Translations under genes and position numbers: made by a program
Source: Squalus acanthias
Lineage: Eukaryota
NCBI GenBank assembly: GCA_030390025.1
Contig: CM059427.1
Span: forward strand, 22,630,001 to 22,694,000
DNA length: 64,000 nucleotides
Direction: 5' to 3'
In this document: positions 5,360 through 29,984 of the stretch, piece after piece
Position numbering within the stretch: the first letter of the stretch is position 1
Layout of the letters: every line of letters begins with the position of its first letter
The notes under the pieces: generated by a model
Seen by the model: only the letters and a program-made list of their open reading frames with translations
The model's database searches: none
Told to the model about the DNA's origin: nothing

Positions 5360-5480
5360 TTAGACTTGTGCAGTCCAAAAAGAGACACTAACTTGACCTT
5401 AACTTTGTTATGGCGCCCCCAGTATCTGGAGAACATGTACAGACACCGTCTGGCAGCTCGACCCATAAAAGTGAGATGAA
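5360..5480. promoter_or_regulatory. Candidate conserved element between HoxD11 and HoxD12
   Basis: DR0-like AAGTTA-AGGTCA on the minus strand (5394-5405), GGCGCCCCCAG (weak CTCF-like) and CCCATAAAA (posterior Hox/Cdx site) clustered in an AT-rich background. Confidence 0.45.
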
Positions 5481-8400
5481 AAAGAGATTCCGAGCAATTC
5501 GACGTAATGTCGGACAAATTCCCAATTGCAAATACTACTCCAAATATAATAACCTTGTTACAGCAATACATTTCGATGCTACAGCAATTTACTTTAGTTA
5601 CAATTATCCAACAAATGAATGTAAATAAGAGCCTGGAATGATGTGCCACATTATTTGCACTCGCGGTGTAATACACACGGAAAGCATTCCAAAATTCAGC
5701 ACCACGCTCAGGACTGATCATTCCCCAAAACGCAGCAACAGCCGTTAGAAAAGCATAGCGATAGTCATTTTTGGTCCGTTTCTAATTCAATTTGGAAGTC
5801 AATTCACAGTTCCGAAATACTGGGGTCTCTGTTTTTAAATGAATACTTGAACTAGAAGTGCAATCGCGGTAACAACGGTAATATTTTCAATATTAGCCGA
5901 TGCATGGTTTCATTGATTTTAAAATATATCTTACATATGGATGAATATGCATTAAAATATGTAGGACCTTCTAGAGTCTGGTACGACATACGTAATTTCC
6001 GACGAATTGGTGGTTGAATTTGTTTCGAATTATTTTCTAACGTGGCGCTTGCGGACGTCCTAGTGCTCAGTAGAAGCTCCCTCAGAATCATTCGCCCATA
6101 CTGCAAACCTACGAGGCGTTTTTATTAGATTACACTGTTTCTAAAACAAGCTCATCAAATTCGATAGATTCGATAGATTTACGCTAATTCTACTTTAACT
6201 TTCTAAAAAGTGAGCAATGTATTTGTAAACTACTGCATGCATTCGTTTTAATTGTATTTAATAGCAGAAGTACGTACGATTTTATGCGAACGTTTTGCAA
6301 ACTTAGTGCAATGGAATTTGATGGAATCTTTGAACATTTAAATACATATTTCACGTCCAGTGGTTATGCAGGAACCTCGACTTCAGAGTAGCCTAGTTTA
6401 AAGTATTCTCTTCTATAGCACCTGCCTTTCTGAAATATAAAAAAGGTCTCGACAATAATAGTAACCTTTCTTTTCATTGCCACGGTCCAAACAATGTAGG
6501 AAAGTGTTCTTGTATGTAACGTCTGGGCTGCAGATATCTGCATTTCTTTCATGTACTTGCTACAACCATGAAGCCCAGGGACTAGGGACATGAAAAGTCG
6601 CTTTGACACGAGCAAATAATTGAATAACAACCTGGGATCAATTTAATTTCACTAAAATAATTTTAAATATGTGCGTGCATTGTTTGCACCGCAAGTCTCA
6701 TTTACATATTTTGCCTGAAAAATCTCTTTGAATTTCATAAGCATGTTTTCATCGCCCCCAGACCTAATTGTCGACATATTATCTTGATATATTTAAGTCC
6801 CATGAAACGTTGTTCGTGAATCCCAAATAGGTAAAGTCAGTAAAATGAAATATTTAATTACATTTAATCTGAGAATATATCTTTGCGTTGATATAGTTCA
6901 ATAAAGGTTCTTAAAAGGTTCATGAAATCGTACGGTGCATGTTTAATTAATGGGAGTCCAGACAAATGGCGGGGTTTGATGTAACTGGCTGTTTTCTGGC
7001 CACCCACGTCCTGATTTGCTAGAATGAGAAGCGAAGTGGCTGCATCTCATTCATTCTCGTTTACATCGTCTGCTAACTGCCCAAACTCAAGTATAAAAAC
7101 TTTGTCCATCAAACCTCATTCATTAACAAGCATAACTTATTTACATCAAAACAAAATTTGACACCTTTAAATTAATTAAAAATCTACCATACTTGAAGCC
7201 GTCAAATCAACAAATTCACGAAGTAGGACGCGACAATGGCGTTGCCCATAAAAGGAAAGTGAAATAATAATTATCAAAGGGGTTGATAGCACTTGACTCC
7301 ATTCTCTAAAACCCAAACATTATTTCCATAGTTCAATACAAACAGTAATTTCGATGAAAAGTGTGTCCCAATTGCGAGTTGAATCGTCGCCAACCTGTAT
7401 AAAATTGATGAACAAAAGTCTCATTCTCGTTTCAAGTGAAACAAGTACGTGACGCCCTACACCCGGGTCAAATCATTTTCCAATTGCAGAAAAGAATAGA
7501 TGATTTTAGTTACATTATTTCGTGCAAGTTTGCCTTTAAATATTTGCACTTATGGTTACTTACTTTTTCTGGCGATTAAGAATGTGAATTATTATAAATT
7601 AATAGACACGTCTTACATAGAGGGGCCCATTACTATTTTGCTTCGAATAAAATAGCGGTCAGCCATAAGTAAAAATAGGAAGGTGTTAGGTAACAACGCT
7701 CAAACGAGAGAGTTAAATCGCTTGTTGCCAAATCAAAATCCAGTAGAATAAAAATAAGAGAGGTGACCACGGGATGTCTTTATATATTATGTAGTTTCTA
7801 TTGGTGCACTGATTTCAATTGAATATTGGTGCACAAGAACACAACTGAAAAGAAATATTTGTCTCATTTAATCTGGATTCGATCGCCTTTATCTTTCATC
7901 GTGCTCAGAATTTCCAAAACCCAAATTTGATCGGTAAACTCTGCGACATTATAAAGATCCTTTAGAAATGTGATTGACGAAAATTAGTTCGCGTGTGTAG
8001 TGATCAGCCAATACTGTTCCAACGATAATGCGATCATTTGAAAACGATTGATTACGACACTATGAACCCTGTAATGTGTCTATACGGCGATTCATATTTT
8101 CCAATCCTGTAACTCATGCATCAGGTGCATATGTTGTGTTCTGAATTAATCGCTAGTGTATAAATATTGAAACTTATTCAGAAATTAGGCGTTCAATGTT
8201 ACTGGAGTAAAAGAACTGCAATAAATCAATTGTAGAAAAAAAGTTGGAGAGGCGTGTTTCTTTATTTTTATTGTGTTCAATATGGGCCTTTAGAGAACCC
8301 AAGAAAAATACAGTTCCATAACAGTTTATCACCCGTGTGTTTTATTTATTATTTTTAATTTCTGGCACCGTTGCTTATTTATTTTATTCTATTCACCGGA

Positions 8401-26878: not shown

Positions 26879-27407
26879 CTAAATGCCTTGAGACACTGGG
26901 CATTGCAGTGTTGAATGTTCCTCCTGAAAAGGGTGCTCCGTAATACTGCGAATGGCTAAAGGCAGACATGCCCAGATTGTTGGGATCTGTCTGGGTCTGG
27001 ACAGGTGCAGCCCGGGGATATTCTAAAGGCCAATGCTGATAAATTGAAGAGCTTGTAGAGTATTCACCTCTGGTGCAGGGGTTGTGCCGGTAGCTACTAA
27101 ACGAAGATATATGACTGTCACTTTGAAGCTGGTTTGCAGGGAATCGACCTGCCTCAGGTGACACAGCAACTATCTCCCGATCTGCACTTCCATGCGATCC
27201 ACAAGTCGAAATGTCTTCGGAGTACAAACCGTGGCACGTTCCACTTGCTGTCGTTTTCAAAGGCGATGGGGACATAGCAGAAGAAATTCCAAAGTTACTG
27301 GAAAGTACTGGTATCATTTCCATAGGCCGCACTCCATTTTGCAGTATTCCTGTTTTATCGCTAGATGTCTCTAACGTCAGTTTGTGCTGCAGCGAACTCG
27401 AATCCAT
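26879..27407 (-). CDS. HOXD14: HoxD14 exon 1
   Basis: ORF MDSSSLQHKL...YQHWPLEY...MPSVSRHL; the phase-1 donor G|GTTGGT joins exon 2 in frame; 266 aa total. Confidence 0.85.
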
Positions 27408-29984
27408 CTTATAGCTGTGCTAAATGATTATGTTCACTCCAGCCACTTGCAAATATAATCCCCTGATATTTTTCTGTCACTGCTTGCCAGTGTAAATTCT
27501 TCTTTGTTCCAAATATTGAGAATGATATGCGTGTGTGGGCACTGAGCAAATACGTTAACTTCCACCTCCCACAAATGGAACTCGGCTATCCATTAAGTGC
27601 ACATACTACACCCTGGTCCAAACTACCTGATCTTTTTATTGCTGTAACTCTACTACAGTTGGTAAATAAAACACATTGTGGACTCATTGCAAATTAAACT
27701 TTGTGAACAAACGTCAAGGACACGACTGCATTACAGAATGACACACTTGTACTGTAGCTATCATACTGTTGACCCAAGGTCAATGCTGAGTTTTGTGAGC
27801 ATTTTGTATCAGATTCCTCTTCCAGCTTTTCTTTGTATGACCTTTCCATGGTGATTTGGGTACCTAGGTTTGTAAAGTGCGTTTAATTTTTTTTAACTCA
27901 AGCGCCAGAATGGAGCAATAATTTAGTAGAACCGTGAACTGTAATCTGGAATAAACCTTCTTCGTGACATTGCAACTTGCGTCAGACAAAAAGCATTTAA
28001 GGAGCTTTTATTGCCTGCTATAACCCTTAACGCTCCAGAATTACACCTCGCGGTACCTGCATTAGACGATCGAACAAATATTTAGTCTATTGCCGTAAAA
28101 CTTCTTTGAGCTAAAGAGAACTACCGCTGTGCACAGAAACGTGGTGTAATGTCTATTAATCGTTTTAAAACCAGTTTTGTGACTTTTTGGTCTAATTTAA
28201 ACTTTCCCTTGACACAGTATTAAAAGTCATTAAAACATAAATGATGGAAATCATGGATTTTGAATTTGTGCAACCCATTTTCCAAGTGAATGCCCTTGCC
28301 ACTATCTTTTCTTTGTATTGTGTTTAACACTACCTTGTTCAGTTTCATTAATCAGTATGATGTCAACGTCGACGAGAATTGACATAATTCTACAGTCTTT
28401 CAATCTGTCGCCAGTTAACCATCAGCTAATTATAAAGAGATTCTGCATTCAGTATTCAAACGGATTTTCAACAGACTAAAGGTTATGAGATAGATGTTGT
28501 GAAAATGTTAAATTCGGTCTTCATTTTTTTCTCATCACTTGCCCTCGCTAGGAATAAATCTTTCAAGACATACATGTCAATTGTTGACTAGCTAGCTAAC
28601 TGTTATTACCCACAAAATAGCAATACAAAACTCCAGAGGTCAGTTTTATTAAGAAATTAAATACAAATCAATGCATACATTTATCCTTTGTAGCAATATT
28701 TTCAAATTGTGTTGATGGAAAATAATTGATCAATACACGAGTTAACTCATACGGATAACAGCGCGTGTTTCACTTTTAATTTGACTCCTAAAATATTATT
28801 TTCAAAAGCCGCTGGCTCTCAGAGAAATTAACTTTTTGGATCAGCTATGAAAGTAATGTGACTGTTAAAATCAAAGGAAACAGATGAGGGCGCCAGAGGA
28901 CAGATATTTCGAGCGAGTGCAGTTAATCTCGATTCCATTCATCTTTGTTTATCTAATACCTCCACTCAAAAATACTGCAAAGCTTCACAATTAATTCATC
29001 ATAACATCCATTCATTTTGATTGGTGGACTACAGATAATATTATTAAACAAGGTTCAAAATCAAGCACGAATAACATTGCATCAATCTCTCAAAAATCCT
29101 TGTTCGCAGGAATGTTGTATTTCGTATCATTGATATAAGCTTTTTAATTTTTGAGGTAACGTTCCGAACATATGAGCTGTTTCGAGGATCCGAAATGTTA
29201 TTATGTTTGCTAACCATAAGACATATTTGCTAACTTGTGATCAAACCATTTCCTACAATGACAAAAATGTTTATCGCTTTAGACCTGTGACTTTTCCTAC
29301 GCCAGCAATTTAAACACGGTATTTATGATGTTTTGCAACTTGTATTCATTTTTTATTGGAAAACAATAACATTAAAAATGGTGTCTCCAGTACTTTACAG
29401 AAGCCTCTGTTGTTGCACGAGACCCTTGGGAAGAAAACATAATTTTCACTGTGCAACTTTTAATATCACCTTTTAATGCATTTTCTTAACCACAATTAAC
29501 ATTAATCGCTTATGTCTTCCCATAAATCGTAGCAATATTATTGCCATTTTCCATTAACTTTGTTTTCGACATTTATTGTCCGGTTATGTTTTGTCTAAAT
29601 GCCGAAATTAGCGTAAATACTGACTACAAGGGTATGAATATGACAATTTATTACAGGTTATAAACTGGAAGAAGAAAATACTCGGAATATATATTAATAT
29701 ATATGACAGGGCGATACTGTTTTTATTCTACGGCATAGGGGACTGTACTAATTAAACCTTTTAGCAGCAATGATATAGGTTCCGTCTATGCATTATTTAA
29801 TATTAATTATGCCTCTCGAACGCTTTTGCTACATTGTCATTTCCCATAAGGGGTTCTCGATAGAAACTATTCTGTGTTATCCACAAAGAAGATCAGTTCT
29901 GCTTTAATTTCACGCGTGTATTTTGGAACTTAGCTCAGAGGTTTCGCTTCTCGTCGGTAAACATTGATTTTGAAAACCAAAGTA

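Follow-up and report, generated by a model that had tools for sequence, protein, structure and literature searches.

The literature explicitly leaves open whether Nr6a1 acts directly in repressing posterior Hox genes, a question that bears on trunk length and on the number of vertebrae. The 5' end of the cartilaginous-fish HoxD cluster raises this question at the level of individual DNA sites. We analysed it in a 64-kb stretch of Squalus acanthias (the window; G000:C3:22,630,001-22,694,000, assigned by open reading frames and homeodomain translations), in which six nuclear-receptor motifs are dispersed across HoxD11 to HoxD14. An initial annotation had proposed that they represent an ancestral nuclear-receptor input, with Nr6a1 (GCNF) as the receptor. 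Five of the six, we find, have independent support for their age, from copies either in this genome's other Hox clusters or in the human genome. The ancestral input itself appears well supported, and wider than proposed, being common to HoxA, HoxB, HoxD and probably HoxC; that Nr6a1 is the receptor remains our inference, as the relevant motif, a direct repeat without spacer (DR0), is shared with other receptors. Overall, we lean towards reading the five sites as old, conserved DR0-type motifs within posterior Hox elements, where they would be redundant candidate docking sites for repressive NR6A1 dimers.

The posterior HoxD cluster is enriched in the extended half-site YCAAGGTCA. All six motifs lie at the coordinates and on the strands first assigned to them, with at least one in every intergenic interval across HoxD11-D14. 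Exactly five YCAAGGTCA occur in the 64-kb window, all on the plus strand (at 12,913, 13,787, 13,812, 20,185 and 27,774). The excess claimed for them also stands: five in the 30.5 kb from the HoxD11 stop codon to the start of Evx2, against 0.55 expected (P = 2.6e-4), at a whole-genome rate of 0.18 per 10 kb (66,638 in 3.713 Gb). Merging the tandem pair leaves four elements in the same interval (P = 0.0024), and a sample of 40 stretches of 10 kb (400 kb) from the same genome, which gives a higher background (13 YCAAGGTCA, 0.33 per 10 kb), yields P = 0.003. When the region was scanned against a second-order Markov model, the YCAAGGTCA class ranked 19th of 131,072 R/Y+8-mer classes. Overlapping words of this motif take ranks 16, 17 and 20, and simple repeats account for all other classes above it; with these repeats set aside, the AAGGTCA family is the top word class of the region.

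The description of these sites as a DR0/YCAAGGTCA array is only partly borne out. The motif is found in all six places, five times as YCAAGGTCA, but a perfect DR0 is found only at 12,910, and two further sites are one mismatch away. The 5,394 site is present but reads TTAAGGTCA, and so is not YCAAGGTCA. The 27,774 site, also present, is 367 bases away from the HoxD14 start on its upstream side, and lacks a DR0-like 5' half. As members of an array, five of the sites are supported, while 27,774 is not. Genome-wide, the perfect DR0 AGKTCAAGGTCA occurs 1,453 times, or once per 2.6 Mb, and five copies lie in the posterior parts of the Hox clusters (one in HoxD, three in HoxB and one in HoxC).

Two elements that flank Hox13 are common to the HoxA, HoxB and HoxD clusters. 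Sister clusters were located by homeodomain search: HoxA on C4, HoxB on C13, and a small contig, C1741, that turned out to carry HoxC12. The same motif occurs at the same position and in the same orientation in at least two clusters for 13,784/13,809 and 20,182 (A, B and D) and for 12,910 (C and D). Compared by their ten-base flanks with the 39 other YCAAGGTCA sites, three of the five window sites (12,913, 13,787 and 20,185) find their best match in the syntenic paralog. The element at 20,182, 2.5 kb 5' of HoxD13, has copies 3.1 kb 5' of HoxA13 and 3.7 kb 5' of HoxB13 with orientation kept; beyond 15 invariant bases HoxD has little in common with A and B (null P 4.5e-4 over the 20 flank bases of 20,185). 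The pair at 13,784/13,809 has copies 3' of HoxA13 (C4:68,910,870-68,910,965) and 3' of HoxB13 (about C13:4,271,030-4,271,085). In the A/B/D alignment, the invariant columns of this element are a TATTCAT and the two receptor motifs, and the HoxB copy of the 13,809 site is a perfect DR0. The 20 flank bases of 13,787 match with a null P of 0.003; those of 13,812 alone are not significant among the 40 YCAAGGTCA sites of the fetched DNA. The TATTCAT resembles a POU-type site. Under the model of two rounds of duplication, any three of the four clusters span the first duplication. Since both Hox13 elements occur in A, B and D, they were therefore likely present in the single ancestral vertebrate cluster, and are likely older than the genome duplications of vertebrates.

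A weaker match, to the perfect DR0 at 12,910, lies upstream of HoxC12. With its flanks it matches G000:C1741:2152-2174 at 21 of 23 bases in the same gene-relative orientation, and 14 of 20 flank bases agree (null P 4e-5). Region XI projects to within about 350 bases of this site, a placement by distance only. Homeodomain search of this genome found no HoxC13, and no second copy of region X was found in it; because of this, HoxC is testable for one site only. An inversion of the flank at the HoxC12 site was considered and is unsupported (4 of 300 shuffles reached the score). HoxC12 looks intact; its contig is 23 kb long, repeat-rich and unplaced, and HoxC13 and HoxC11 are absent among the homeodomain matches listed.

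The 5,394 site is, by its sequence, the known region X/HOTAIR-paralog element. Positions 5386-5425 match the HOXD oligonucleotide of PMC7139118 (Table S4) at 36 of 40 bases, with the last 23 identical, and fall inside the projected footprint fp20/RX (5,372-5,612). The oligonucleotides of that paper include human copies in HoxC and HoxD. The extended half-site is absent from all of them: TTAAGGTCA stands in the shark and in the HOXD oligonucleotide, and TGAAGGTCA in the HOTAIR oligonucleotide. A CTCF reading of region X was rejected, as its G run is out of register with the CTCF consensus.

Conserved footprints and other genomes also cover these elements. Footprint fp17, assigned by distance and not by sequence, projects onto 13,676-13,833 and takes in both sites of the pair and a CTCF-like motif that is common to D and A and degenerate in B; it is listed in 10 of 11 vertebrates in the table of PMC3091776. 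Projections of RX, RXI, fp17 and fp26 use the horn-shark coordinates of supplement S1 to that paper. We also compared 5,200-20,400 of the window with contigs from four other organisms. Three span nearly all of it at about 93-97% identity, a figure for the whole stretch and not for site letters; the fourth aligns in patches, one piece ending at 13,906, and the bin of the pair is partly covered.

The sixth site, at 27,774, looks like a chance occurrence, of which 0.55 are expected. Among 39 other sites none matches its flanks, the matching HoxA position has no half-site, and HoxB likewise has no matching site. It forms part of a near-palindrome at 27,768-27,782, together with an opposite half-site one base off (TGACCC-A-AGGTCA). 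Nearby, 28,052-28,088 upstream of HoxD14 matches G000:C4:68,923,665-68,923,701, 10 kb 5' of HoxA13, over 37 bases (84%). The match is possibly a remnant of the group-14 region in HoxA.

The motif is concentrated in the posterior parts of the clusters. Taken together, the posterior zones of D, A and B span 88 kb and contain 11 separate YCAAGGTCA elements where 1.6 are expected, whereas the 221 kb of the anterior zones contain two where 4.0 are expected (posterior against anterior, binomial P 4e-5). DR0 with at most one mismatch also leans posterior (17 against 13 anterior, P 0.001); DR1-DR4 with at most one mismatch have no such lean, and DR5 leans anterior (5 posterior against 29 anterior). 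HoxB13 is the richest in sites, with six in 26 kb, two of them perfect DR0. The longer pattern KYCAAGGTCAA fits four of the five window sites and all three HoxA13 sites, against 12% genome-wide (8,086 of 66,638). Conserved copies, which comprise few independent elements, keep a G/T four bases upstream of AGGTCA and mostly a 3' A. A receptor monomer reads three bases beyond the AGGTCA half-site. In these few elements, the KYCAAGGTCAA excess would extend conservation into the 5' half-site, past what a monomer reads.

Further motifs were observed around these zones. Perfect or near-perfect DR0 lie upstream of HoxB13 (G000:C13:4,282,095-4,282,112 and 4,282,876-4,282,887) and in the HoxB10-B13 gap (4,213,403-4,213,414), and the HoxA13 intron holds three successive half-sites, GAGTCA-AGTTCA-AGATCA (G000:C4:68,912,822-68,912,839). 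Just outside the window, 559 bases before its start, TGTCAAGGTCA stands at G000:C3:22,629,434-22,629,460 with a TGAACT half-site 10 bases away. Projected fp26 RVIII/RIX reaches this position with its far edge (by distance only), and a weak HoxA match keeps TGAACT and lacks AAGGTCA; region IX is positioned 3' of HoxD11 in PMC3091776. Motif direction differs along HoxD, in a small number of sites: those 3' of HoxD12 (5,394 and -558) face the cluster's 3' end, and those on the 5' side of HoxD12 (12,910-27,782) face Evx2. The flip falls at the same point as that of CTCF orientation in mouse (PMC8559674).

The genome encodes the candidate receptor. NR6A1 has a DNA-binding domain (G000:C14:81170581-81170787) identical to PDB 5KRB at 68 of 69 positions, and adjoins an NR5A gene on C14. 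A second NR6A gene (G000:C15:66,927,405-66,927,611), whose DNA-binding domain agrees with PDB 5KRB at 59 of 68 positions, has another two-exon receptor domain 350 kb away, an arrangement that mirrors the NR6A1-NR5A pair. NR6A1 is described as a DR0-binding homodimer that represses (PMC10909835), and its binding is also reported at genes it may activate (PMC12957460). In mouse, loss of Nr6a1 results in precocious Hox12/13, most strongly Hoxb13, the counterpart of the site-rich shark gene. Reanalysed chromatin immunoprecipitation data place putative Nr6a1 sites in each of the four mouse clusters, in a study that does not settle the mechanism (PMC9755267). Somite peaks that are linked to late genes are also enriched for NR6A1 motifs, and the effects predicted from them are largest for Hox10-13 (PMC10563765). 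Direct action of Nr6a1 on posterior Hox is nevertheless called "currently unclear" in the review PMC10909835.

If the five sites are NR6A1 docking sites, a nuclear receptor would bind the DR0-type motifs and NR6A1 would be the receptor that matters in the axis. During trunk growth, NR6A1 dimers would flank Hox13 on either side and also occupy the Hox11-Hox12 interval. There they would recruit corepressors beside the CTCF boundary, adding a repressive delay to Hox11-13; CTCF sites facing Evx2 are described in mouse (PMC8559674). Falling NR6A1, under Gdf11 and miR-196, would then release the posterior Hox genes. Several weak sites would act together, and this redundancy would make single deletions mild, while other receptors would probably use the same sites in other cells. 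More speculatively, these elements may be a repressor code that predates the duplications: NR6A-binding DR0 elements would stand on either side of Hox13 and, together with regions IX, X and XI, make up a single redundant brake that times the trunk-to-tail switch. The sole deeply conserved piece of HOTAIR would then be a DNA site and not an RNA-pairing sequence, with mild single deletions again explained by redundancy. We regard this broader proposal as possible, yet doubtful as a whole.

Several observations weigh against NR6A1 docking. A perfect DR0 stands at only one of the six window sites and nowhere in posterior HoxA, and in HoxD by itself DR0 with at most one mismatch is not in excess (3 in 30.5 kb, where the background sample has 0.63 per 10 kb). 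Region X lacks the C of YCAAGGTCA in both shark and human, and its deletion gave no phenotype (cited in PMC7139118). The HoxC match of 12,910 has a BLAST E of 0.055, and the limits of the posterior and anterior zones, like the KYCAAGGTCAA pattern, were chosen after the sites were seen. In vitro, loss of Nr6a1 alone switches on no posterior Hox gene except Hoxb13 (PMC9755267). DR0 and DR0-like motifs are also used by COUP-TFs, ESRRB, NR5A2 and RAR/RXR (PMC4446430), and the mouse Hoxb13 DR0 was studied as a RAR-RXR element (PMC7515732). All six remain candidate binding sites, known here from their sequence.

An unlikely, though the best surviving, alternative is that the DR0 hubs serve mainly RAR/RXR or COUP-TF (NR2F), in a retinoid-linked repression of posterior Hox, with the Nr6a1 effect on Hox being indirect. 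Region IX of Hoxd11 is said to have been described by Gerard and colleagues in 1996 as a receptor-binding silencer that bound RAR and COUP-TF in vitro, and a point mutation in it reportedly shifts Hoxd11/d10 and the sacrum forward; TGTCAAGGTCA lies near it outside the window, and can be equated with that site by distance only. In embryonic cells, no element is more enriched than DR0 in the regions that RAR/RXR occupies, and COUP-TFs bind DR0 too (PMC4446430); the mouse Hoxb13 DR0, which binds RAR-RXR in vitro (PMC7515732), matches the shark element 5' of Hox13 at 14 of 16 bases. However, RAR/RXR binding to DR0 is weak and non-cooperative and leaves reporter output unchanged (PMC7515732, PMC4446430), several sites combine a poor 5' half with a perfect CAAGGTCA, and the posterior zones show no enrichment of DR1 or DR5. 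Perfect DR1, DR2 and DR5, the classical retinoic acid response elements, are absent from the window, and perfect DR5 is found in the anterior clusters.

Slightly less likely again, the sites might serve monomeric ERR/NR5A activators of Hox13 in hindgut, cloaca and urogenital tissue rather than axial timing. All six fit TNAAGGTCA or YCAAGGYCA, and region X is closer to TNAAGGTCA than to YCAAGGTCA; the genome has an NR5A gene, and YCAAGGTCA and TNAAGGTCA suit such monomers (PMC4446430). Yet the three posterior zones hold 14 YCAAGGTCA and not one copy of the NR5A-type YCAAGGCCA, and every conserved copy keeps the G/T four bases upstream of AGGTCA, which a monomer need not read. It is improbable that the motifs are chance or passengers of elements kept for a CTCF boundary or for HOTAIR-ncHOXD11 RNA pairing: 27,774 does look like chance, a CTCF-like motif lies 50 bases from the pair and an RNA-pairing model is in print for region X (PMC7139118), but the motif is nearly all that HoxD shares with A and B 5' of Hox13, HoxB retains receptor sites and not the CTCF motif, and HOTAIR and ncHOXD11 are complementary because one DNA element is read in opposite directions.

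The features of the window are collected in Table 1. In the gene region past Evx2, a GC-rich 27-base tandem array at 58,060-58,990 is open in several frames.

Table 1. Genes and motif-bearing elements of the window, in order of position.
Feature	Position	Strand	Basis or remark
HoxD11 coding span, two exons	1145..2544	-	Open reading frame and homeodomain translations
Region X/HoxD copy of HOTAIR-paralog conserved element; AAGTTA-AGGTCA-AGTTAG	5386..5425	-	Site at 5,394-5,405
HoxD12 coding span	9292..10854	-	Open reading frame and homeodomain translations
Perfect DR0 AGTTCA-AGGTCA (12,910-12,921) with flanks	12908..12930	+	In or near region XI
CTCF-like motif at edge of 3'-of-Hox13 element, pointing to Evx2	13723..13735	+	Consensus scan with a CTCF pattern
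TATTCAT	13766..13772	+	Invariant in HoxA, HoxB and HoxD copies
DR0-like AAGTCA-AGGTCA, first of pair 3' of HoxD13	13784..13795	+	GTCAAG.TCA invariant in 3 of 3 clusters
DR0-like TAGTCA-AGGTCA, second of pair	13809..13820	+	CAAGGTCAA invariant in 3 of 3 clusters
HoxD13 coding span	16392..17697	-	Open reading frame and homeodomain evidence
AGGCCA-AGGTCA-AGGTGG element 5' of HoxD13	20181..20198	+	15 consecutive bases invariant 5' of HoxA13, HoxB13 and HoxD13
HoxD14 coding span, split homeobox	25620..27407	-	3' limit approximate
Lone CCAAGGTCA upstream of HoxD14	27774..27782	+	No support for function
Evx2 coding span	31670..34348	+	Start codon approximate

The elements are mostly known conserved regions, and a motif link between Nr6a1 and Hox10-13 has already been predicted for mouse (PMC10563765). 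Matsunami et al. (2010) reported three elements common to all four clusters (cited in PMC3595034), which may already include the two Hox13 elements. A literature search, with most subscription journals outside its reach, found no work that places NR6A1 motifs at these elements or in sharks, or that shows the A/B/D paralogy; a preprint on Hoxb13 insulation, in the part available, does not mention Nr6a1. If NR6A1 docking is true, separately named HoxD regions would be joined under one motif, and the conserved element of HOTAIR would gain a DNA-level reading. In the shark clusters the question comes down to four or five short elements that have paralogous copies, so that a few point mutations could test it.

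Known systems resemble these sites in different respects. The element of PMC7139118, fp20 in PMC3091776, is the same as that at 5,394; earlier work described it as an enhancer and as a sequence for RNA-RNA pairing (HOTAIR with ncHOXD11), and linked it to the region tested by Beckers et al., whereas we read it as a receptor half-site array. The terms motif, nuclear receptor and binding site do not appear in the main text of PMC7139118 as available, and the PMC3091776 table gives fp17 and RXI without motif content or HoxA/HoxB copies. The likeness of the mouse Hoxb13 DR0 (PMC7515732, PDB 6XWH) to the shark element 5' of Hox13 is one of sequence, with the two half-sites swapped. The DR0 of the Oct4 promoter, the textbook GCNF site, is similarly contested by several receptors, with GCNF as the repressor; it is, however, a single promoter site with binding shown, while the HoxD sites are several, dispersed and predicted from the DNA alone. 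Lastly, the passages on the mouse Nr6a1 system name no sites and hold no shark data or paralogy, but the factor, its targets (Hox11-13, in all clusters) and the motif class are the same (PMC9755267, PMC10909835, PMC10563765).

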